Shown here: piece after piece, positions 7,248 through 41,418 of the stretch
How the letters are laid out: every line of letters starts with the position of its first letter
How positions within the stretch are numbered: the stretch's first letter is position 1
Source: a virus
Taxonomy: Duplodnaviria; Caudoviricetes
Direction: 5' to 3' (one strand)
Length of the DNA stretch: 64,000 nt
Virus record (IMG/VR): IMGVR_UViG_2524614764_000005
Span: 40,462 to 104,461 of that record
Notes under the pieces: generated by a model
The model's database searches: none
The model's input: only the letters and a program-made list of their open reading frames with translations
What the model was told of the DNA's origin: nothing
Translations under genes and position numbers: made by a program

Positions 7248-9779
7248 CTAAACCGTCATTTTTGTTCTGGATGTATATGATTTCTGTCTTTTTCTATGTT
7301 TTTCTTTTTCAATTGCGACTGAACACTTTGAACAAAAACTAGAGTTGTTTGAGGTAGGCTTATACATTTGTCCACACTTTACGCAACCTTTGAAAGTTTT
7401 TAAATTCCTTTTTAGATTATTTAGTATGGTCTCACCAAAACATTCCCACAACGTTGCTTTATACCTGCTTTTCTTTTTGTATAGATGTTTCACAAGAACA
7501 TCCACAACATACTGTTCATCGCCATTTATTTCAAGTAGCTTTTCTCTAATGAGCTTATAAACGTACAATTTCTGATTCGGCTTAGTTTCTTCATTATTAG
7601 TAAGCCATTTTTTATTGCGATCAAGCTTTATGTATTCACTAACCAATTCTTCATCTTCTTTAATACGTTTGTTTTTTAATAAGAAGTTATAATCGAAATG
7701 TCCAGCAACGGCCTTGAAATTAATCCTATCAGTTGGAATGATTTCTTCTAGTTTATTTACTGTACTTTCATTAATAGACTGTACAGAAGAGATATCCTTA
7801 TCTTTAGCATGAACAAAGAAGAAAGGCACTTTGTCTTTTATGTAATTTTTAATTTGTTTGTCAACATTGTCTGGTCTTGTAGGCATAAACAAGGTTTTTG
7901 CATAATCAATAGCGAAGTTATTTTCAGCGCATAGCCATTTGATAACATTAATATTAACTGAAGAACTGTTCCAGATCTTCGTTATATTGTTACTATACTC
8001 GCCAATATTAACTGCATAGGCATTTGTCAAAGATTCATAAATATTTTCACTATTAATAATCTGTTTGTTTGCAACACCCATTTCATAATAAAGGGGGACG
8101 ATGTCAGCAACATGCTTCTTTGCAATATTAACAAAGAATGTATCTGATATGATCAGCGCTTTATCTCCGTCATTGTCAAACTGGAGCAATTTTGAGATTG
8201 GATCATGAACACTTGTATAAACTCCTTTAGTGATAAACCAGTCATCTAAAAGCTCATTTCTAACATTCTTTCTAATACCATGCTCACGATAAAGATGAGG
8301 GGAGCGAAGTACATCAATTTCTCCTTCATCATAAAGCGCACAGTAAACATTGCTACCATCCAACAAACCATTTGGATGTTCAATTCCCAGAAAAAGTTTT
8401 TCACAAAAAGCGTATAAATCAGGGCAGAGATATGTGTACTTGGAGTTTTCAATTTGCAGCTTGCCTGATTTTGCGTCTTTTACAAGACTCTTTTTCTTAT
8501 TCTTAATGGTTTCTTTGACATGATCATCATTCAATAGTTGAGGATAGAGAAGTAATGCATTTTGCAAAGGCGATCTGAATTTTCGATTCTCAGTAGCCCC
8601 CATAATTTTTAACATAATATCTTTATCATTACCAATAGCCTTTATTTCCTCAACAGTTTTGTTACTAATAGACTTGAGCTCATCATGAGTAATATCAGTA
8701 AGGGTTTGAAGCATTTGATATGTAAGTTTCCCCTCAACTGAAGGATCTTCTTCATTTAATTTTGCACCTAGACAACCGTACAGAACAAATTTTTCTTGAT
8801 ATTCGCTCCAGGACTTATAATATTTCCACATCTTAAATTGTGATTTAGTGAAAATAATCTGGATATCATCTTTCTTAATATCCCATACCTTACCGTATAT
8901 GTCAGTAATTTGTGTTTTGTTATGTGTTTCTGCAAAACGATGAAAGTCGAAGGGCACTAACAGTCCTTTAACCCACGGCAGTCTGACCATAAAGCTTTTA
9001 CTACTGAGCTTAGGTGATATAATTCCACAACCATCAGTATGTTCAATAGGAATGTTCATTGTCTTTCTAGTAATCTCATATGTATTTCTATCAATGTAAT
9101 CAACTTCACTCATTACATTAGTCTCTAAGTCATCAACAACAACAGTTTTACTGATATCAATATCCCAATGGCTGCTGGCACTATTCGATAAAGCGAGGTA
9201 AGCATTCCATTTATTGATATTCATCCCACCATTAGAATTGATATCTTCAAGACTGAGGCCACATGTTAAAGCATTTTCAAATTTATCGTATGTAGACTTC
9301 TTAATAAAACAAGCTTTTTTCGTTCGTATTTGCCCAGCTGAACTCGTAAAGTAAACATAAAGTTCATTATTATGTACAAAACCTTTATCAAGAATACTCT
9401 TGAACACCTGGAAATGGTATACCTGAACCACAATTACATCATCAGAGAAATTGTTTTCTTTTATACCTAGAGTTCGAGTCATAACTGAATCAAACATAGC
9501 GATCTTTTTATTATCAGTTAATGTATCGGCTCTAAGCATTCGTACACTTTCATGTTCACTGAAGGCTTGATTTAACTCCTGTTTTAATTTAGCGATTCTG
9601 TTTTTTATGTATTTCTTATTTTTTTTGGTATCCCCATTATGTGTTTTAAGCAAATCTCTATATCTATAAGACTTTAAAATCTTTCTATGTAATAAATTTT
9701 CCCGATCATTATAAAAACTCGAAGTATCGAGACTATAAATAAACACTTGTTTGCTTAAATCATTTGTTTTTCTCCCCAA
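7248..9779 (-). CDS. yonO: YonO single-subunit two-barrel DNA-dependent RNA polymerase (late transcription)
   Basis: 843 aa; TDGCG, LRSPH, catalytic QFDNDGD (DxDGD) motif, C-terminal Zn finger. Confidence 0.93.
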
Positions 9780-10003: not shown

Positions 10004-10032
10004 ATTTTATATGTAATTTGTATTTTAGTCAA
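10004..10032 (-). promoter_or_regulatory. SPBRE sigma-A promoter (TTGACT-AAAATACAAATTACATA-TAAAAT) driving yonP-yonO
   Basis: 17-bp spacer equals the SPbeta repeated element core (MrpR operator). Confidence 0.8.
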
Positions 10033-10078
10033 TATAAAAATATATGTTATTTGTATTTTATTAAGAGAGACTGATTAC

Positions 10079-10318
10079 TCAGTCTTCAATAATGGAGAAG
10101 AGATCATGTATTTCGCATTCCAACGTTTTGCATAATGCTATAGCGTAAGGAAGTGATGGGGGATTGGAACAGAAACCTTCATCATTATTAGCACACCAAA
10201 TAGAAATTCTACTGGAGTTAGTGCCTATTTGGTCAGCAAGCCACTTCTGTTTAATACCTTTAGAGTTTAGGTAGTCCTTTAAATTGCTTCTAACCTTATA
10301 TTTCATAATATCACCCAA
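10079..10318 (-). CDS. yonR: XRE-family HTH regulator
   Basis: SNLKDYLNSKGIKQKWLADQIG...CEIHDLF; synteny. Confidence 0.75.
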   Translation of the reverse strand: MGDIMKYKVRSNLKDYLNSKGIKQKWLADQIGTNSSRISIWCANNDEGFCSNPPSLPYAIALCKTLECEIHDLFSIIED

Positions 10319-10434
10319 TGAGAATTTTATATTATGTGTTGTCTTTATTCAAATGTTCAATTAAATTCACTTAAATAGATAAAAAAAGTTGTCTATATGG
10401 ATAACTTTTGTTACTCTATCAGTGGAGGTGCAGT

Positions 10435-10731
10435 ATGACATATTTTGATGAAGTCGTTGCCAGATTAAATATTGATGATGTATCACTGTTAACATTGCTG
10501 CAAGAATGCGGAGCGAACAGGCTAATAAAAGGAATGACAAAAGAAGACTTCAAGATCGAATCAGTTAAGTTAGACACTCAATTTTCAGAAGCGACTATAA
10601 GATCAGCTTTAAGTAAATTAGAGGCACTGCTGCTTATTGAAAGAGACTCGTCAAGTAAGCACCATAAATTCATAATTACTTCATATGGAATTATGGCCTT
10701 AGAATATCATTTGGAAGGGGAAATGATTTAA
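10435..10731 (+). CDS. Winged-helix DNA-binding protein, TubR-like adaptor
   Basis: ATG after SD GGAGGTG; SEATIRSALSKLE...FIITSYG wHTH; translationally coupled to the tubulin gene. Confidence 0.65.
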   Translation: MTYFDEVVARLNIDDVSLLTLLQECGANRLIKGMTKEDFKIESVKLDTQFSEATIRSALSKLEALLLIERDSSSKHHKFIITSYGIMALEYHLEGEMI

Positions 10732-11843
10732 TGTACGGATTTGTGGGAATTGGTCAATGTGGTGGGAGCATTGCAGATGAAGCAATGAAAAGAGGATATT
10801 TCAGTATTGCTGTCAATTACTCTAGCTCAGATTTAAATAGTTTAGAAGTTGTTGAAGACAAACTAAAGCTAGTTGGATCCGAAGGAGTAGGCAAGGATAG
10901 GGAAGCAGCTATAAATTACTTTAAAAATAACTGGGAATCATCTGTTGAATTCATCAAAGAAGCAATGGAAAAGCCATCGATTCAAGTAGTGTTCGTAGTC
11001 TTTTCAACAGCTGGAGGTACAGGATCAGGAATTGCACCGACATTAATAGAATTATTAGATGAATATTTGGATAACAAAACCGTAGTTGCTGTACCAGTCA
11101 TACCCGATAAAAGTGAAGTAATATTGAATCAACTAAACACCGTTGAATGCCTTCAGGAACTGTCAGAAAAACAATTGAATGTAATTCCCCTAGACAATTT
11201 TAAAGTGTCTCAAAAGGGCATTAAATCGTTCTCAGAGCCTATCCTATATCAAAAGGTAAATAAACAATTTATTGATATGCTTGAAGAGGTTGAAGGGTAT
11301 ACAAACCTTCCGTCTAGCTACAGTACATTAGACAAGAAGGACTTAAATCAAATTTTCAATACTCCAGGTGTGACAGTGTTATCAAAAATGGATTTATCTG
11401 ATTATAACAAAGGAAAATTCGCAAACACTCTACATGACGATATTAAACAGTCATGGCAGCAATCCATTTTTAGCGCAGACACTTTTGATTCATTAGTTAA
11501 AGCTGGTGTTATTATAGACGGTAATGCAGATTTAACTGATCAGATTAGCTTTAAGAGACTTTTCAGTGAGGGTGAGCCATTAGATTTATTTAAAGGATAT
11601 TATGATACTGGTAAGAATCAAGTGATTTCAATTTTAAGTGGACTAGGATGGATTAACGACAGAATGAAGCAATTAGATGACCTGATTGAATCAAGAAAAG
11701 TTGAACCAGTAAAAGAAGAGGTATATGTTCCAAAATTTAATTCAAAGTCAGCATTTTTAAAGCAGCAGACTAACACCAAAAGGGACGTAAAGCAGGTAAG
11801 TAAGGGGAGTTTCTTAGATAAACTTAAATCATTAAAGGGATAA
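10731..11843 (+). CDS. Tubulin/FtsZ-family GTPase (TubZ-like)
   Basis: GIGQCGGSIA, EGVGKD, AGGTGSG signature, PLDN, T7-like LDKKD, basic C-terminal tail. Confidence 0.9.
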   Translation: MYGFVGIGQCGGSIADEAMKRGYFSIAVNYSSSDLNSLEVVEDKLKLVGSEGVGKDREAAINYFKNNWESSVEFIKEAMEKPSIQVVFVVFSTAGGTGSGIAPTLIELLDEYLDNKTVVAVPVIPDKSEVILNQLNTVECLQELSEKQLNVIPLDNFKVSQKGIKSFSEPILYQKVNKQFIDMLEEVEGYTNLPSSYSTLDKKDLNQIFNTPGVTVLSKMDLSDYNKGKFANTLHDDIKQSWQQSIFSADTFDSLVKAGVIIDGNADLTDQISFKRLFSEGEPLDLFKGYYDTGKNQVISILSGLGWINDRMKQLDDLIESRKVEPVKEEVYVPKFNSKSAFLKQQTNTKRDVKQVSKGSFLDKLKSLKG

Positions 11844-11848
11844 AACCA

Positions 11849-11882
11849 GGTGAGATGGTCAATTGACTGTCTCATTTTTTTG
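11849..11882 (+). terminator. Intrinsic terminator after the tubulin gene
   Basis: TGAGATGGTC-AATT-GACTGTCTCA followed by a T-run. Confidence 0.8.
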
Positions 11883-12745
11883 TTATCGTAAATTTTTGAG
11901 GACGATATCGTAAAATTGATAAAATGGAGAAAAAACAGAGTAATAGCAATAGGTTTGATGATATTTTAATGAATATGAGGGAGATGTAATCGTAAAGTCG
12001 TTGTGGGAGTAAGGAAAAGTGGGTAAATCTGATGAAAATCAGGAAAAATGGGTGAGTAGGGGAAGGGATTAACGTTGATATATAAGGCTTTTACGATAGC
12101 AAGTACGATAGAAAATAGGCTAAAATCGATAAAATTTATAGGGTGTGGAAATGGAAGTGCTATGGGCACATTTGTTCTTTGTTTTAGCGATTTGGATGTT
12201 AATATACCCCCCTCTAATGGTAATAGATGGTTATGAATGCGTCTTATAATTATAGTTATAATGCAGATTCCTTTGCGAGTCTGCTTTTTTATTTGTGGCC
12301 AATCCAATGCACAATTAATAAGAAAAATCAACACTTTATTGAACTAAATTTAAAAATTTTAAAAAATTGATGTGATTTTCAATATTTGTTCCATTATGCG
12401 GAACTCTTCGTATGAATAACAGGGGGCAGGAAATCGAAGTGTTATTTTTTTATATTTAATGTTTATTATTATATAGTCTTGGTACTGTAATCTTCTCACA
12501 TTATCCACCTTAACTAGTCTCATCACCTTATATCTACACACATTCACCATAATATACTCTAATCCTCACATCAATCACACATCACCAAATCAATCCTGAG
12601 CACACTCACATCCTCATACAAAGGTTTAATTTAATCACACAACCAATCTATCTAATCCTACTCAACACATCATACAGACGAATATAAGAACAAAAATAAA
12701 TATAAGTAAATCAAATTATTAAAACACAAATTACATACATTATCA

Positions 12746-12787: not shown

Positions 12788-12961
12788 GTGCTTGAAAAGG
12801 TGACTATAATAATGGCTTTACTTATCAGTCTTACTACAGTCTTAATCAATATGCTTGTGATTATTGAAAAGGTTGTCAGTATCACTAAAAGTATAAGCCA
12901 AAAGAAAAAGCGTACACGTAAGCGACCTAGGTCAAGGACACGCAAACGGATACGCCATTAA
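12788..12961 (+). CDS. yonT: YonT type I toxin (57 aa)
   Basis: MLEKVTIIMALLISLTTVLINMLVIIEKVVSITKSISQKKKRTRKRPRSRTRKRIRH: TM helix plus Arg/Lys tail; strong SD AAAGGAGGTG. Confidence 0.88.
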   Translation: MLEKVTIIMALLISLTTVLINMLVIIEKVVSITKSISQKKKRTRKRPRSRTRKRIRH

Positions 12962-12998
12962 ACATCATAAGACATTGGGAGATACTTCTCCCTTTGTC
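12900..12998 (-). ncRNA. SR6-like antisense antitoxin RNA (boundaries approximate)
   Basis: Minus-strand TGn-TATAAT at 13013-13005 and hairpin 12971-12998, convergent on the yonT 3' end, as for SR6 in SPbeta. Confidence 0.5.
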
Positions 12999-13037
12999 AC
13001 CTATATTATAGCACCTTGCAGCACTTTGTAAACATAT

Positions 13038-14739: not shown

Positions 14740-14768
14740 TTGATTAAAATACAAATAACATATATAAT
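14740..14768 (+). promoter_or_regulatory. SPBRE sigma-A promoter
   Basis: TTGATT-AAAATACAAATAACATA-TATAAT with upstream AAAATAACAC half copy. Confidence 0.85.
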
Positions 14769-17750: not shown

Positions 17751-18374
17751 ATGGAAAGCAGTGAAAGTGCATCACTTAAAGTGCCTAAACATATCATAAG
17801 AAATGATAAATTCTATATAACAAATCAGGAATTTCATCTATACGCTTACCTTTGCTATATGAATTTCAGAAATTTCAATGAAGAAGAGATGGAAGTAGAT
17901 CATCTCAAACTGAAAAATCTTCTTAAGATCAGTGACGCTAGGACATTGAAGAAGCGTTTAAACACCTTACATAAGCATAATCTTATAAGGAATAAAATCG
18001 ATAAACTTCCAACCAAGGGTACTATGAAAATTATCTTTAATGGAGATGTGAAAAAGGATCAAATGTTCTGCAAGATGAATCCAATCATATTTACATATTT
18101 TAAGAATGATCAAATAGACTCGAATGGAATTAGGTTGGCTTTTTATTACAAGAGTTTCTCACATGAAGGATACTGTACAGTGGGGTTTGAAACACTAAAA
18201 GAGAATTTGAAAATTGGGAATAGTACTATTTCCAATTCAAACAAATCTTTAGAGAGGTCAGAACTTCTGAAAATAAAATCACATAAGTTAGAAACGTATG
18301 GTTACAACCAAAAAGATGCGTTGGTTATCGATAGTTGGAGTAATCATTACCAAATCTTAGAACCATTACGTTAA
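17751..18374 (+). CDS. Tandem wHTH DNA-binding protein (paralog 1)
   Basis: Two HTH-like repeats (EFHLYAYL...TLKKRLNTL; GFETLKENLKIGNSTISNSNKSLE). Confidence 0.6.
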   Translation: MESSESASLKVPKHIIRNDKFYITNQEFHLYAYLCYMNFRNFNEEEMEVDHLKLKNLLKISDARTLKKRLNTLHKHNLIRNKIDKLPTKGTMKIIFNGDVKKDQMFCKMNPIIFTYFKNDQIDSNGIRLAFYYKSFSHEGYCTVGFETLKENLKIGNSTISNSNKSLERSELLKIKSHKLETYGYNQKDALVIDSWSNHYQILEPLR

Positions 18375-18432
18375 TTATTGAAAAAACAGTAATAAATTTC
18401 AATAGTTTAAAATAAGAGATAGGAGAGGTTTT

Positions 18433-19119
18433 TTGAGTAATAACTCTGAATTACTAATTGCAAATGATGTCATCAGAGATCCGAATTTATCCAGTGAAGA
18501 ATTTTCAGTTTACGCCGTTCTGATAAGGCTTTACTTCTCTAAAAAAGAGAAAGTGAATCCGATTCAAGTTAACCATAAACGAATTAGTGAACGGTTGGGA
18601 ATACCAAAGAACGAGACTTTGAAAAAATACATAAATGGGCTTTATGAGAAGAAATTGATACTTAATAAGGTTGATGCTTTACCAAGAAAAGGCTTAATAG
18701 ACATAACGTTAAATGAATCTCGACTACCTGTAAAGGGTAGCAATATAACTTTCACTCAAACCACTGAGAGCATTATATCATCCGAATGTGTGTCGCAAAT
18801 TAAAATGAAGGGTATAAGGCTCTACTTCTATTTAAAGAGCTACATGGACACAAGGCACACTCCTTCATTTGCTTATCCAGGGATGGATAGAATTTCCGCC
18901 GAAACGGGAGTTGCAAAAAACACCATTAGAAAACATTTATCTCTAATGAAAAACAAAAGGTTTATTGATATTCAACATTCGGATAAGCAAAGTTCCAAAG
19001 AGTCTTATTATGGTGAAGACGATCAAGTTATTACCACTGGATATCAGAACAAGTACATTTTATATGATCATCACATCAATGAATATGCAAGAAAGAATAG
19101 CGGTTTATCATGTGGTTGA
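18433..19119 (+). CDS. Tandem wHTH DNA-binding protein (paralog 2; replication-initiator-like HTH)
   Basis: AYPGMDRISAETGVAKNTIRKHLSLMKNKRFI; similar along its length to paralog 1. Confidence 0.65.
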   Translation: MSNNSELLIANDVIRDPNLSSEEFSVYAVLIRLYFSKKEKVNPIQVNHKRISERLGIPKNETLKKYINGLYEKKLILNKVDALPRKGLIDITLNESRLPVKGSNITFTQTTESIISSECVSQIKMKGIRLYFYLKSYMDTRHTPSFAYPGMDRISAETGVAKNTIRKHLSLMKNKRFIDIQHSDKQSSKESYYGEDDQVITTGYQNKYILYDHHINEYARKNSGLSCG

Positions 19120-24291: not shown

Positions 24292-25374
24292 ATGAATTCG
24301 AAAGCAGTCCCATTAAAGGAATACACTGTATATAACGATATAATGACCTATCTAAAAAAGATCGATGATGAAGGATCAGTAGGAAATATTGATGTTTTTT
24401 CTAAAACACAGCGGAGACATAAATTGTTTGAGACAAATACAGCAGTTAATTATTATGGTGACATTAAACAATTCTTTGGTTTTCTTAAACCCACTATTGG
24501 AATAGAGTTTTTAACTCCGAAAGATATTGAAATCACATCAATTGACCTGATAAATTTTAGGAAACATCTGAAAGAAAAAGGTTTGGCGAATTCAACTATC
24601 AACCGTAAAGTGATATCAGTTAAAGGCTTATACAAGTTTCTTAAGTCAGTTAGTACTTATTCTTCTTCAATTGATTTAAATCAATTTGGATCAACAAAGA
24701 AATTAAAAGAAATCTCTAAAAGTTACGGCAAAACTACACAAACTGAAGCAGAAAGAATTGCTGAAAACATGCTATTTGAGCGGGAGAATGGCTTAAAAAA
24801 GAAGCTACTAACAAAATTTCTAATTCGTACTTCTTTTAGGATCGAGTATGCACTTACTGTTAGATGGATGGATATCAAGAAAGTTGATGGTGAATTGTAT
24901 AAAGTTGAAGCTTTGAACAAAGGTTCGTATGTAGTTTCTACAGGACTACATGAAAATTTCTTAAATGAGTTGCGGCAATTAAGAAAACAAAACAGTATGG
25001 AGAATGATTTAGTGTTTGGTGGATTGACATCAAGATCTTACAGAGAATCGTTCAACAGAGCTTTGGATAGATTAGATATACCTGCATCAAGAAACCTTAA
25101 ACCTCACTCTTTAAAGGGAGTTGGGATTGATATAGCTTATGAAGAGTCTGGCAATGATATTCGAGTTGCTATGAATCAAGGGAACCATAAAGATCCTACG
25201 ACTCCATTGAGATATTTAACTAAAAATGACAACATCGAAAACTCTGCGGGTATATTGATGGATAAAGAAGTAGATTTTACATTGATTGAAAGTGCGACAA
25301 AAGAGGATTTTGTCAATTTTTTTCGTAAAGCAGATAGGGGAACTATGCAAAAGTTCCTAGATTTTGTGAGGTAA
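24292..25374 (+). CDS. yopP: Tyrosine-recombinase-fold protein (SroD)
   Basis: SAM-like domain (LANSTINRKVISVKGLYKFL); catalytic-type residues SFR, PHSLK, GNH...RY. Confidence 0.8.
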   Translation: MNSKAVPLKEYTVYNDIMTYLKKIDDEGSVGNIDVFSKTQRRHKLFETNTAVNYYGDIKQFFGFLKPTIGIEFLTPKDIEITSIDLINFRKHLKEKGLANSTINRKVISVKGLYKFLKSVSTYSSSIDLNQFGSTKKLKEISKSYGKTTQTEAERIAENMLFERENGLKKKLLTKFLIRTSFRIEYALTVRWMDIKKVDGELYKVEALNKGSYVVSTGLHENFLNELRQLRKQNSMENDLVFGGLTSRSYRESFNRALDRLDIPASRNLKPHSLKGVGIDIAYEESGNDIRVAMNQGNHKDPTTPLRYLTKNDNIENSAGILMDKEVDFTLIESATKEDFVNFFRKADRGTMQKFLDFVR

Positions 25375-25457
25375 GTTTACATTTAGATTAATTTTATGAC
25401 TATAAATTGATTTAATATAATTTGTTTGTTATTTTTGTTTTAGAAGAGGTGTGCTAT

Positions 25458-26846
25458 ATGAATAAGTTAGTTATTTTTGATAATGAAAAAGATGCTTTAC
25501 TAAATGAAACAATAGAAATGCTATTGCAAAAAAATAAACATGACAAACAATTTAGAGAAAGACTGCAAAATGCTCTTTCTCATAAAGGCGTTTCGCCAGG
25601 GGAAACGATGAATCTAATAATAAGATTTGGGAGACAGGAAGCGCTGCAGAAAGAAGAAAAATACCTACTAGCTTCAGGTATATACGAAGTAACTAAAGAT
25701 GAAAAGATTAATCCAATAAATTATTTTCCGGAAAGAATAATTCAAGAAATTGAAACAACGTGGGAAGGTTTCTCACAGAATAATGACAGTGAGCTGAATT
25801 TTCCCATAAAATTTGAGGATGTTACTAAAGTAGATGACAACAACTACACATTCTTACTTAAAAGAAGTGAAATAGCAAAGATGTATGAAAACCATTTGCT
25901 TCAATACAACCCAAGAACTCAAAGGACTAGTGAGACTAAAAATTTTGAGTTCTTAGGTGGTGAAATACCTATCCCTGAGCTAAATCAAAACGCAGTAGAA
26001 GAGATTTCACAAAAAACTATCTATGGTACCTTAATAAGCTCAACTTTAATACTTAACGCAAGATTTGGTTCATCTTCCGAAGGGATTGAGGTAGTTTATG
26101 ACCCCCATGAAAGAACTTTAACAGTTATGAGCGGCACTCTGCTAGATGTAATTGATGGTTATCATCGAATTGTAGGGATATCGAAAGCAGTAAGATCTGG
26201 CAGCTTTGATGATAAATTTATGAAAATAGACTTTTATAATGTAACTCAGAAAGTTGCAAGACAGTTATTTGGTCAGCATAATACAATGACTCCTGTAAGA
26301 CTTTCGAAGTTAAAAGAAATGAATGAAGAAAATCCTGTGAATAAAGTTGTTACTCATATAAGAGACAACAGTGTAATTGGACAGAGAATCAGTTTAGATA
26401 TTGATGTTATTACAACTCATTCAGATTATTTATATTCTTTAAATGACGTAGCAAATGCAGTTGAGGCTACAAAATTTCCTAAGCTGCTTAAAGATCAGAT
26501 TGCTGTAAGAAAAATAGGGGTTTATTTGGTAGAATTTTTTGATGAAGTGACTGAGTTTTATTATGAAGAGTTTCTGGGTGACAAATTTGAGCAGGCGCAA
26601 AAAACAATTGTAATAAATAAAAATATTTTAGTTGGATTGATGGAAATAGCGTATTATATGTACACTTCTGGAATTAGCGCAAAAATGGCGCAACAAATAA
26701 TTATAAAAAAGGGATTTAACTTCAACAGAAATAATCCAGAATTAACAAAATACAAAATATTGAATAAAAAAAATGAAGTAACTCACAGTAAGAATCATAT
26801 TTTAAAATATGTTAAAGACAAATTGAATGAAGTAGAAGGTGTATAG
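25458..26846 (+). CDS. yopQ: DndB/ParB-like protein (SroE)
   Basis: QYNPRTQR and IDGYHR motifs; synteny. Confidence 0.75.
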   Translation: MNKLVIFDNEKDALLNETIEMLLQKNKHDKQFRERLQNALSHKGVSPGETMNLIIRFGRQEALQKEEKYLLASGIYEVTKDEKINPINYFPERIIQEIETTWEGFSQNNDSELNFPIKFEDVTKVDDNNYTFLLKRSEIAKMYENHLLQYNPRTQRTSETKNFEFLGGEIPIPELNQNAVEEISQKTIYGTLISSTLILNARFGSSSEGIEVVYDPHERTLTVMSGTLLDVIDGYHRIVGISKAVRSGSFDDKFMKIDFYNVTQKVARQLFGQHNTMTPVRLSKLKEMNEENPVNKVVTHIRDNSVIGQRISLDIDVITTHSDYLYSLNDVANAVEATKFPKLLKDQIAVRKIGVYLVEFFDEVTEFYYEEFLGDKFEQAQKTIVINKNILVGLMEIAYYMYTSGISAKMAQQIIIKKGFNFNRNNPELTKYKILNKKNEVTHSKNHILKYVKDKLNEVEGV

Positions 26847-26848
26847 CT

Positions 26849-27838
26849 TTGTGGTATAACTCACAGTTTAAAAAAACTTATTTAGATACATTAAGTAGTG
26901 ATAGCCAGCAAAAGCAAGTATCACTGTTGTTCAATCACTCTCAAAAAGAGGAAGAAATAAGAGAAAAAGACTTATTTGATTTTACAACGGATGAAATTTT
27001 GAATGTGCTAAGAGCAATGTATTCAACTTCTCTTGCATCTTTGGAAACATTTTTATATAACATGATAAGCTATATAGATTGGTCAATTGCAAATGGTGTT
27101 ACAAAGGGTAGTAATAATTTGGCTAGGTTGATAAAAACCAATGATTTATTGTCATGTATAGATTCTTCATTAAAATTATATATAACTAAAAATGAATTAG
27201 AGAAAATGTGTGCAGAATTAATTAATGCCCAAGATAGAGCATTGTTTAGATTGCTTTTTGAGGGAATATTGGGCTTTGAGGCAAGTGAAATGACCAGTCT
27301 TAAAAGAAGTGATATTGAAAAAGCGTTGAATAATAATAATATGCTAACTGTGCATGATTCTAAATTTGGCGAAAGAACTGTAAAAGTAGACAAAATAACT
27401 TTGCAAGACTGTCTTGAAGCAAACCGACAAACAGAATATAAACCATTGAATGGGAAACCAGGGCTAAGAAAGCCATCATTAAGTTTAGTTGATAATGAAT
27501 ATGTAATAAAAACAAAACAGACTAATGCGATTGGACAAGGACAAGCTTCGAGAACTGTAGTAAGTTCTACTTTTAGAAACCTTAAAGAAATTTTTGGTTT
27601 TTCATTTTTAAGACCTATAGGTATAGTTAAGTCAGGCCTTCTATATGAGGGTTATAAGCTGATATTAAAAGGGGAAGAGTTGGACAGAAAAGCTCTTAAT
27701 GAAATATATGAAGATAGGAAAGTCCAAACAACGGACTTGAACCAAAAGATCATTTCAGATCGAAGAGAATTTATGAATGAGGAAACCATAAGAAAATATT
27801 ACGCAGATGAACTTAAAGAAGAAGGCAAATCTAAATGA
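26849..27838 (+). CDS. yopR: Master repressor MrpR (SroF), catalytically degenerate recombinase fold
   Basis: EKDLFDFT, LINAQD...LLFEG, IVKSG; lacks HxxR; synteny. Confidence 0.8.
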   Translation: MWYNSQFKKTYLDTLSSDSQQKQVSLLFNHSQKEEEIREKDLFDFTTDEILNVLRAMYSTSLASLETFLYNMISYIDWSIANGVTKGSNNLARLIKTNDLLSCIDSSLKLYITKNELEKMCAELINAQDRALFRLLFEGILGFEASEMTSLKRSDIEKALNNNNMLTVHDSKFGERTVKVDKITLQDCLEANRQTEYKPLNGKPGLRKPSLSLVDNEYVIKTKQTNAIGQGQASRTVVSSTFRNLKEIFGFSFLRPIGIVKSGLLYEGYKLILKGEELDRKALNEIYEDRKVQTTDLNQKIISDRREFMNEETIRKYYADELKEEGKSK

Positions 27839-39688: not shown

Positions 39689-41299
39689 ATGTCTTGCATT
39701 GAAATAATGAAGGAGATTAACGGTATTTTGCAACAAGGAATAATAAACAGAATAGTTACAAATGATTCTGTAAACGTCCAGACTAATTTGATTGAATGGT
39801 TTAAAAAAGCTAGTTATGAAGAGGTTAGAAGAGAAGTCGCTAGAGGTTTTAAATTAAACTTTACCTTACCAATAGTAGGAGAACTAACTCCATTTGATTT
39901 TGGGGCAAGCGATAGTGAACAAAAATTTAATGAATTAAAAAGTTATATAAATCAAGGGAAAGTTACTAGAATGAGCATAGCCAGCACACGCAACTTTTTA
40001 AGTGAGAATATTGATGCAAACACAGTTGCAGCTTGGGAACGGTCAATAGCTAGAGCAATGAGTGTATGCACATTGGAGCAATTGACGACTATTCAAACTA
40101 ATGCTTCAGATACAGGTACTTCAGATACAGGTACTTCTGATGGGGACACACATCAACCTCCACCGCCACCTTTTAATTATGGGCTAAGATATACGATTGA
40201 CAACTCAGATGGAAATACTGTAATAAAGATTTTATATCATCCACAAAACAGAAATGATACTTACCCTAAAGTTGAATCATTCTCGGTGATTGGTGGAGAG
40301 TGCATACAAGGAGCTCTTACAGCAGGAGAAAGTATAGATAATGAAAAAACAATAATATTAAAACAAACCTCATCCGATAGTGCACTATTGTTAATATCAA
40401 CTGATAAACAGGATCTAGATATTAAATTTTCAACAAATGTATTGAATACGCTTTTGATGAAAATTTTCGTATACAAGATACCAATTAATCCTTTTCAACA
40501 TATATATACGCAAAAAGTTCCTGAAGGTTATAAAATTATTGGAGCTGGATTTAATTTAGGTTTTGGTAATGGAAATGTCGCCAATAAACCTAATATTATT
40601 CCAACATCGTCATATCCATTGAGCAATAATGAATGGTCAGTAAAATTTTCAAGTAAAATTGAAAATCAAAGCGAGCAAAATCTATTTTTAGCATTAACGA
40701 CAGTATATGACCCACATAACACTTGGGATATTAAAATTTTTAGCAATAAACAAAGGAATGTTAGCAAAGTGAGTAGTTCCCCTAATGAAGATTTCATATT
40801 AGTTGGAGGAGGATGTAATTTTAATGTTATAGGGGCAAATGATTCATCTGATTATTTTAATATGGAAGACTTTAGAGTGGGATTAAGGTCACTTTATCCA
40901 AAAAACTCAAGTACATGGGAAGTTAGTCTTGGCGAGTCTGATATTCAAAGAGTGGGGAACTGGGAGTTAACATGTTATTCAATAGGAATAAAAAACAATG
41001 GTAATATTGAAAACTTTGTAAAGCAAGAGAACTCTAAAAATAATGCCTATCTTTCAGATGGTATTTATTACACAAGCTCCGGTGGGGGTGTTTTAAATGA
41101 AGCTGATAGAAATAAATCTATATCCGTAAACATTCATTATTTCAAATCAATTGGTGGTGGAACAGCAACAGATCAATCGACTCCAATAGGATGGTTCTGC
41201 AGTTCTAGCAATGGTATGCTTTCAAGTGAGTTAAACACATACGCTCTTGGTATAAGACATTCAGGTATTCAATTTTTACCGATTGAGTTCAAATATTAA
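39689..41299 (+). CDS. Moron-like 536-aa protein of unknown function with a triplicated C-terminal beta-rich motif
   Basis: Own SD AAAGGAGG and strong terminator; Ser/Thr/Pro linker; repeats VPEGYKIIGAG, PNEDFILVGGG, YYTSSGGG. Confidence 0.7.
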   Translation: MSCIEIMKEINGILQQGIINRIVTNDSVNVQTNLIEWFKKASYEEVRREVARGFKLNFTLPIVGELTPFDFGASDSEQKFNELKSYINQGKVTRMSIASTRNFLSENIDANTVAAWERSIARAMSVCTLEQLTTIQTNASDTGTSDTGTSDGDTHQPPPPPFNYGLRYTIDNSDGNTVIKILYHPQNRNDTYPKVESFSVIGGECIQGALTAGESIDNEKTIILKQTSSDSALLLISTDKQDLDIKFSTNVLNTLLMKIFVYKIPINPFQHIYTQKVPEGYKIIGAGFNLGFGNGNVANKPNIIPTSSYPLSNNEWSVKFSSKIENQSEQNLFLALTTVYDPHNTWDIKIFSNKQRNVSKVSSSPNEDFILVGGGCNFNVIGANDSSDYFNMEDFRVGLRSLYPKNSSTWEVSLGESDIQRVGNWELTCYSIGIKNNGNIENFVKQENSKNNAYLSDGIYYTSSGGGVLNEADRNKSISVNIHYFKSIGGGTATDQSTPIGWFCSSSNGMLSSELNTYALGIRHSGIQFLPIEFKY

Positions 41300-41389: not shown

Positions 41390-41418
41390 TTGACTAAAAT
41401 ACAAATTACATATATTAT
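41390..41418 (+). promoter_or_regulatory. SPBRE sigma-A promoter of the replication operon
   Basis: TTGACT-AAAATACAAATTACATA-TATTAT. Confidence 0.85.

Follow-up and report, generated by a model that had tools for sequence, protein, structure and literature searches.

A self-contained tubR-tubZ cassette, probably of the type III cytomotive kind, in an SPbeta-like Bacillus phage

Work on tubulin-based (type III) segregation has dealt with virulence plasmids of Bacillus and with c-st, a plasmid prophage of Clostridium botulinum, and jumbo phages encode tubulins that act in the lytic cycle. Here we describe a tubR-tubZ gene pair encoded within a stretch of 64,000 nucleotides of viral DNA (positions 40,462 to 104,461 of record IMGVR_UViG_2524614764_000005; hereafter the window), which covers the right-hand part of an IMG/VR provirus record of 104,461 bp. 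The source phage is an SPbeta-like Bacillus phage, in which homologues of yonP and YonV are present and AimR and MrpR are also encoded. The two genes belong to a self-contained three-gene cassette, which we take to be of the type III (TubZRC) cytomotive kind and which consists of a gene for an Xre-type helix-turn-helix (HTH) regulator, an operator region, and the tubR-tubZ pair with its terminator. Its features, in window coordinates, are the following.

10079-10306, minus strand: Xre/Cro-type HTH regulator, 75 amino acids from ATG, divergent from tubR; Pfam HTH_26, 2.3e-06
10307-10434: divergent promoter/operator region, a spacer of about 116-128 nucleotides with three related half-sites
10338-10348: half-site GTTGTCTTTAT
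10388-10398: half-site GTTGTCTATAT, half of a 22-bp palindrome at 10386-10407
within the palindrome 10386-10407: inverted half-site GTTATCCATAT
10435-10731, plus strand: tubR, predicted winged-helix centromere-binding adaptor, 98 amino acids
10731-11843, plus strand: tubZ, 370 amino acids, a TubZ-clade GTPase in the tubulin/FtsZ superfamily
11848-11877, plus strand: intrinsic terminator closing the tubRZ operon, with a 13-bp stem, a 4-nucleotide loop and a T-run

The two plus-strand genes share a single base (TAATG at 10729-10733); no terminator separates them, and each is preceded by its own Shine-Dalgarno sequence. An earlier note on this DNA, made from the letters alone, had described a winged-helix gene coupled to a tubulin/FtsZ GTPase with a GGTGSG motif and followed by its own terminator; both genes lie at the coordinates it gave, and the terminator is borne out by the stem and T-run listed above. 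A hairpin with a T-run is also found downstream of tubZ in each of three related loci (L003, L004, L005).

TubZ matches the Pfam Tubulin family (PF00091) at 4.2e-20, with 73 bits against a cut-off of 33. Its T1 glycine loop, GIGQCGG, occupies residues 6-12, and AGGTGSG occupies residues 94-100 (GGTGSG at about nucleotides 11013-11030); the T1 loop and the G-box are conserved among 25 homologues. The T1, T4 and T7 motifs are all conserved, and the two aspartates assigned to T7 by alignment and model position (D201 and D204, within LDKKD) are invariant in the 25 sequences. In this superfamily, GTP hydrolysis that depends on polymerisation requires acidic residues in the T7 loop. The best sequence matches in the PDB are c-st TubZ (8.5e-17), a CetZ (8.3e-14) and pXO1-type RepX/TubZ (2.1e-10), with FtsZ proteins ranking below them. 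The AlphaFold2 (AF2) model of TubZ has a predicted local distance difference test score (pLDDT) of 87, and its top Foldseek match is again c-st TubZ (3v3t; template modelling score, TM, 0.86; root-mean-square deviation, rmsd, 2.5 A). From residue 336 onwards the protein is predicted to form a disordered tail (pLDDT < 50), which ends in a conserved basic peptide, S-x-x-D-x-L-K-x-[YL]-K-[RG].

Two other identities were considered for this protein and rejected. The FtsZ equivalog model NCBIfam TIGR00065 scores only 27.6 bits against a cut-off of 295.2. A PHROG family named 'tubulin PhuZ' does match at 3e-11; the PDB sequence matches at E <= 0.01 include no chain of PhuZ, PhuZ and phiKZ TubZ fall outside the clade of the source protein on a very long branch, and a TubR is present here.

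Pfam assigns no family to TubR. A phmmer search with the single sequence retrieved the TubR of the Priestia megaterium plasmid pBM400 from the PDB (4asn) at 1.6e-10, and a profile built from seven orthologues raised this match to 6.9e-26 and added a second TubR (6tey) at 9e-05. The AF2 model (pLDDT 81) likewise has 4asn as its top Foldseek match (TM 0.87, rmsd 1.4 A). The proposal that an SPbeta-like phage carries a TubR/TubZ pair is thus upheld for both proteins.

The relationships of TubZ were examined with a quick maximum-likelihood tree of 46 proteins. The source TubZ falls in a clade of six SPbeta-like phage sequences with a Shimodaira-Hasegawa-like approximate likelihood ratio (SH-aLRT) support of 100, and this clade is nested in a clade of 24 sequences that includes pBM400 TubZ (SH-aLRT 99). 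Neighbouring clades hold the proteins of phage G and c-st, and the TubZ proteins of pXO1 and pBtoxis are more distant. Comparison with TubZ, PhuZ and FtsZ, which the earlier note had named as a check of its reading, therefore places the protein with pBM400 and leaves PhuZ outside. The SPbeta-like clade is monophyletic and has diverged internally to 53-59% identity. Among four copies from the B. pumilus group, the ratio of nonsynonymous to synonymous substitution rates (dN/dS) is 0.09-0.15 for tubZ and 0.06-0.17 for tubR. Judged from their sequences, tubR and tubZ are working genes of the TubR and TubZ families that are under purifying selection.

The Xre gene is a constant third member of the tubRZ cassette. 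Its product is 41-93% identical to a divergent HTH protein at every tubRZ locus compared, and a divergent HTH gene is also present at three distant tubRZ loci (L025, L026 and L028). A weak hairpin (AGACTGA/TCAGTCT) overlaps the stop codon of the gene. The flanking HTH gene had previously been taken for yonR, an assignment that we do not retain: blastp against SPbeta YonR gave E = 0.2, and, compared with yonR, the gene is read in the opposite direction (minus strand) and lies across the pac-like region described below.

The words GTTGTCT(T/A)TAT at 10338 and 10388, which had been proposed as a possible tubC or operator, are real. GTTGTCTWTAT occurs in two exact copies, both upstream of tubR, and nowhere else in the 104-kb record; in a complete relative of 124.5 kb it is likewise confined to the region upstream of tubR. 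Promoter-like hexamers on the minus strand (10360-10324) overlap the first word, which lies inside the predicted promoter of the HTH gene. Other lineages have the same layout, with an extra copy and a palindrome, built from different words (ATTTGCAT or AATGATTAC). The operator, TubR and the Xre protein change together across lineages, and this co-variation fits either protein as the binder. We regard the upstream half-sites as a credible candidate site for TubR, Xre or both, and at best as a minimal centromere/operator. A similar core, TRTCYWTA, is repeated in front of tubR on pBM400, where the 641-nucleotide spacer holds five of the ten copies at the locus; this is a weak lead, as other lineages use different words.

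The HTH/tubR-tubZ cassette is found beside yonO in prophages of B. altitudinis/pumilus (TubZ 92-96% identical), B. licheniformis (59%) and B. amyloliquefaciens/velezensis (53%). More distant copies, 38-45% identical, have the same location in Cytobacillus, Anoxybacillus, another Bacillales species representative and a Niallia-like TubZ lineage known from a sequencing-run assembly. Across the named lineages the neighbours of the cassette are yonO, HU, yonK and yonJ. A relative is present on each of 30 IMG/VR contigs, a profile scan of genome contigs with a restricted search pattern gave at least 4 loci, and tubR is located directly upstream of tubZ in all of the 30+ loci compared. Among phage records, TubZ has matches only in phage G (33.5% identical) and c-st/D-1873 (~25%), and we found no link of TubZ to SPbeta-like phages in the searchable literature. 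YonO is present in 8 of 91 Bacillaceae species representatives, two of which have this TubZ. The Pfam RdRP model is too weak for reliable scoring of YonO in distant genomes. In c-st, a YonO homologue is encoded about 10 kb from tubRZY. Since the cassette occurs in distant genera and c-st has a YonO near its tubRZY, the cassette appears to be ancient among the YonO phages, and the B. subtilis SPbeta group, from these comparisons, seems to be a branch that does not have it.

Within the velezensis group, TubZ is 93-100% identical while two alternative upstream modules occur. Between these modules TubR is ~49% and the HTH protein ~36% identical, and the operators differ as well; the three are exchanged as a unit, with the break in DNA homology located 53 nucleotides before the start of tubZ. 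A constant TubZ combined with exchangeable TubR/site modules is what would be expected of a system that recognises its own DNA.

The position of the cassette within the phage genome can be specified with the help of the surrounding features.

7248-9779, minus strand: YonO-type, RdRP-like RNA polymerase; PHROG 8308, E = 0; 70% identical to SPbeta YonO
10004-10058, minus strand: yonP-yonO promoter TTGACT-17-TAAAAT, the left edge of the cassette, with two SPBRE-like copies
11885-12222: pac-like region, homologue of the SPbeta yonP-yonR intergenic DNA; context, outside the module
11885, 11907 and 11989 (direct), 12092 and 12104 (inverted): ATCGTAAA repeats
about 12788-13000: yonT/SR6-like toxin-antitoxin locus with a yonT-like open reading frame (ORF) for a hydrophobic/basic toxin of 57 amino acids
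17751-19119: Rep/DnaD-like winged-helix pair, two paralogues; PHROG 'replication initiation', 6e-08

The gene order in the source phage is yonO, yonP / HTH, tubR, tubZ / pac-like region / yonT, and in SPbeta it is yonO, yonP / about 950 nucleotides of non-coding DNA (the pac region) / yonR, yonS, yonT. The cassette is located between the yonP promoter and the pac-like DNA, and therefore it does not occupy the yonS slot between yonR and yonT to which it had been assigned. Window positions 12071-12222 align by blastn to SPbeta 64424-64594, and SPbeta contains the same five ATCGTAAA words with the same 22/82/103/12-nucleotide spacing and no tubRZ. The genome-opening point and the pac site of SPbeta have been mapped between yonR and yonP (Kohm et al., bioRxiv 10.1101/2021.11.22.469490). 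We thus rejected the repeat array at 11880-12130 as tubC, and with it the suggestion that this DNA is a target of TubR: the spacing is identical in the TubR-less SPbeta, and the array falls inside the mapped pac/opening interval. The array is accordingly a conserved part of the pac region that does not depend on TubR, and it is likely to be a pac or terminase-recognition element shared by SPbeta-like phages.

A second repeated word separates the cassette from the rest of the genome. AAATACAAATWACATATA is present in 25 copies in the window (7043-60499; among them 14747-14764 and 41397-41414) where about one would be expected, and its orientation is consistent throughout, with all copies up to 10058 on the minus strand and all copies from 12722 onwards on the plus strand. 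Two exact minus-strand matches (10008-10025 and 10041-10058) overlap the yonP promoter, and in SPbeta a peak of MrpR at the yonP promoter has been reported by chromatin affinity purification sequencing (ChAP-seq; PMC10516654). Judged from its position and orientation, AAATACAAATWACATATA is probably the counterpart of SPBRE, the SPbeta operator for the master repressor MrpR, and marks phage promoters. None of the 25 strand-consistent sites lies between 10059 and 12721, an interval that includes the cassette. Leftward and rightward transcription diverge exactly where the cassette is placed, and the pac-like region adjoins it. With its own regulator, its own terminators and no master-operator-like sites, the cassette appears to be regulated autonomously.

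Taken as a mechanism, these features suggest that TubR would tag the DNA of the phage at the operator half-sites and regulate its own operon, and that TubZ filaments would move or position the phage DNA when it is extrachromosomal; we assign this reading a probability of roughly 0.6. TubR dimers would bind the three half-sites in the promoter region of the cassette, and this binding would serve both as autoregulation of the operon and as a tag on the phage DNA. GTP-bound TubZ would assemble into treadmilling filaments, whose conserved C-terminal tails may capture the TubR-DNA complex, so that the filaments could move or position the phage genome after infection, after excision or during episomal carriage. 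Since most carriers of the cassette are integrating phages, we lean towards positioning or segregation of an excised or replicating genome, and consider permanent plasmid maintenance less likely.

Both protein families are already known, as is a phage-borne TubZRC system, that of c-st. What differs here from the known systems is the location in an integrating SPbeta-like element, the Xre protein in the place of TubY, the minimal operator, the position adjoining pac and the swapped specificity modules. The closest characterised relative is that of pBM400, with TubZ 37-38% and TubR 36-37% identical and the same order of tubR followed by tubZ. pBM400 is a 54-kb plasmid with a 641-nucleotide spacer upstream and a 326-residue HTH protein encoded upstream on the same strand, whereas the present cassette is found in an integrating phage of ~125 kb, with a spacer of 116-128 nucleotides and a divergent 75-residue Xre partner. 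The 497-kb Bacillus jumbo phage G encodes an adjacent TubR-like (98 amino acids) and TubZ-like pair, gp137/gp138 (L024, 2186-3613), whose TubZ belongs to a neighbouring clade; the pair is uncharacterised and annotated only as hypothetical or FtsZ-like, and a divergent Xre gene is not annotated beside it. PhuZ and phiKZ TubZ of the jumbo Pseudomonas phages are also phage tubulins that position phage DNA, but they lie on a long branch of the tree outside the source clade, and PhuZ functions without a TubR-type adaptor.

The c-st system is phage-borne too and provides the best PDB match in both sequence and fold, yet its TubZ is only ~25% identical. It has a YonO homologue and an FtsK-like gene near tubRZ, as do distant Bacillaceae relatives of the present cassette. 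As a plasmid prophage, c-st has a ~350-bp centromere composed of two iteron types (PMC6009700) as well as a MerR-like TubY, and no counterpart of either was found here. A functional analogy is offered by the integrated prophage CGP3 of Corynebacterium glutamicum, in which the adaptor AlpA, co-transcribed with the actin-like AlpC, binds the promoter of its own operon, links circular CGP3 DNA to AlpC filaments and together with AlpC is required for efficient replication after induction (PMC4446434). The analogy does not extend beyond function, as AlpC has an actin fold and AlpA is not a TubR. As a tested precedent for an integrating phage, AlpA/AlpC nevertheless lends some support, by analogy, to the positioning of an excised or replicating genome.

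An FtsK/SpoIIIE-like ATPase is encoded about 3-6 kb downstream of tubZ in distant relatives (L025, L026, L010, L011), c-st has one as well (CST193), and many of these loci have RecD2/UvrD helicases nearby. An FtsK-like gene was not found in the source record.

Several observations weigh against the reading that TubR tags the phage DNA for transport by TubZ. An extended iteron centromere was not found upstream of tubR, only three half-sites in 116 nucleotides, although published tubC sites are about 130-350 bp long (PMC6009700) and the identical repeat analysis applied to c-st recovered its dense, 11-bp-spaced iterons. The half-sites could also belong to Xre and not to TubR; in each of the two proteins the recognition helix changes along with the operator. 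No convincing sigma-A (sigma-70-like) promoter was found before tubR on the plus strand of the spacer. TubY is a MerR-like HTH protein with a coiled coil and an amphipathic tail that is encoded nearby (PMC7762940); no TubY-like MerR/coiled-coil protein was found here, and the sole neighbouring regulator is the 75-residue Xre/HTH_26 protein. The cassette is present in none of ~24 deposited SPbeta-type phage isolates, the canonical B. subtilis SPbeta-type phages being without it. Finally, DNA binding by TubR, polymerisation by TubZ and the stage of the life cycle at which they act are points that we infer.

The most serious competing explanation, which we nonetheless consider unlikely, is that the phage is maintained as a low-copy circular plasmid in the manner of c-st, that TubZRC secures its inheritance, and that integration and the episome are alternative lysogenic states. 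Whole SPbeta-like genomes with the cassette have indeed been deposited as circular plasmids, namely a 124,561-bp element of B. pumilus FUA2116, whose TubZ is 96% identical, and the 122,487-bp plaBV1 of B. velezensis HMB26553. However, an SPbeta-like phage of B. subtilis SH1 that has no tubRZ is likewise filed as a circular plasmid, of 118 kb, so that the label may stand for no more than DNA excised or induced during culture, and such records lose weight as proof of episomal life; the FUA2116 element, moreover, still retains a large serine recombinase. This B. pumilus plasmid and an integrated relative have different integration modules. Most relatives are integrated, with CP124831.1 among the examples: they were located in a 3.9-Mb chromosome at 2.09 Mb, in G024:C1 at 2.09 Mb, in a 1.6-Mb contig and in G121 at 4.06 Mb. 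Five IMG/VR relatives were checked as well; all five proved to be proviruses (completeness 93-100%), and three carry a terminal large serine recombinase. For the source phage itself the record, a truncated provirus, starts in a Y-family polymerase-like ORF and ends in a ribonucleotide-reductase-like ORF; both ends are thus inside phage genes, and the record is therefore without host flank and without an integrase end. The question of integration, which had been raised together with episomal persistence, is in this way addressed through the relatives, most of them integrated proviruses and two of them circular plasmid records, and not through the source record, which has no host flank; episomal persistence of the phage is weakly indicated as possible. 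With its own regulator and no master-operator-like sites, the cassette could be expressed during lysogeny, and the swapping of TubR, HTH and operator resembles the diversification of partition incompatibility groups, both as plasmid maintenance would have it. Against this, no plasmid-type replicon is common to the TubRZ carriers. The Rep/DnaD-like pair at 17751-19119 had zero matches in deposited phages and is missing from five other TubRZ-bearing genomes or records, which rules it out as a plasmid replicon linked to tubRZ; as far as these comparisons go, it is an accessory replicon-like module private to the source phage.

Manipulation of the host, in which TubZ would co-polymerise with or displace FtsZ and thereby delay division or alter cell shape, with TubR as a mere regulator, is very unlikely in our view, and nothing we found points to the interference with host FtsZ that the earlier note had entertained. 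TubZ and FtsZ do belong to the same superfamily, the cassette is outside master-repressor control, and Spbetavirus lysogeny has been reported to alter host morphology (PMC12361552). The phage of that report, phi3T, is however without tubZ; the score with the FtsZ equivalog is far below its cut-off, the closest relatives are TubZ proteins that segregate DNA, and the strict coupling to TubR and the lineage-specific cis sites fit a DNA cargo, not interference with FtsZ. Still less probable is that the cassette is a plasmid-derived passenger in a variable region that is now without a role. Such neutral or decaying cargo would agree with the absence of the cassette from the B. subtilis SPbeta-type phages, but not with a dN/dS of ~0.1 in both genes and motifs that are all intact, nor with the monophyly and deep divergence of the SPbeta-like TubZ clade, nor with synteny that is held in distant genera.

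The reading in terms of TubR-tagged, TubZ-positioned phage DNA can be extended, if only tentatively. The cassette may be an ancestral, widely kept, organelle-like device of the whole YonO phage lineage, from Clostridium c-st to the SPbeta-like phages of Bacillus, that is placed by pac, carries exchangeable TubR/operator 'address' modules, and would provide these temperate phages of ordinary size with plasmid-like inheritance of the unintegrated genome, such as in growing, chaining or sporulating cells, either ahead of integration or once the genome has been excised. If this were true, SPbeta-like phages would possess a hidden third, episomal lifestyle and partition-type incompatibility groups. 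The cassette in any case bears on the question of an episomal state in SPbeta-like phages, and as a genetically tractable model family SPbeta offers a route to the role of a DNA-moving filament in a normally chromosomal phage. The natural swaps of TubR and operator around a constant TubZ constitute a ready-made experiment on partition specificity.

Some further observations concern the source phage and the distribution of related elements. In the yonT-like locus, the Rfam SR6 antitoxin model matches antisense to the yonT-like ORF with 42 bits, which is under its gathering score of 55. A tyrosine-integrase-like gene, a DndB-like gene and an MrpR homologue follow one another downstream of aimR at 24292-27838, and the same series is found in the B. 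pumilus 'plasmid' relative. A search for anti-phage defence with PADLOC gave no meaningful signal. A 133,358-bp contig (NZ_JBHVTC010000023.1) of an assembly named 'Streptomyces sp.' contains an SPbeta-like phage of the B. velezensis type with tubRZ, and is most likely contamination. Small plasmids of C. perfringens (35-39 kb, e.g. NZ_CP075986.1, from PLSDB) encode full-length YonO-like polymerases with ~41% identity over 92%, and may be phage-plasmids of the YonO lineage.

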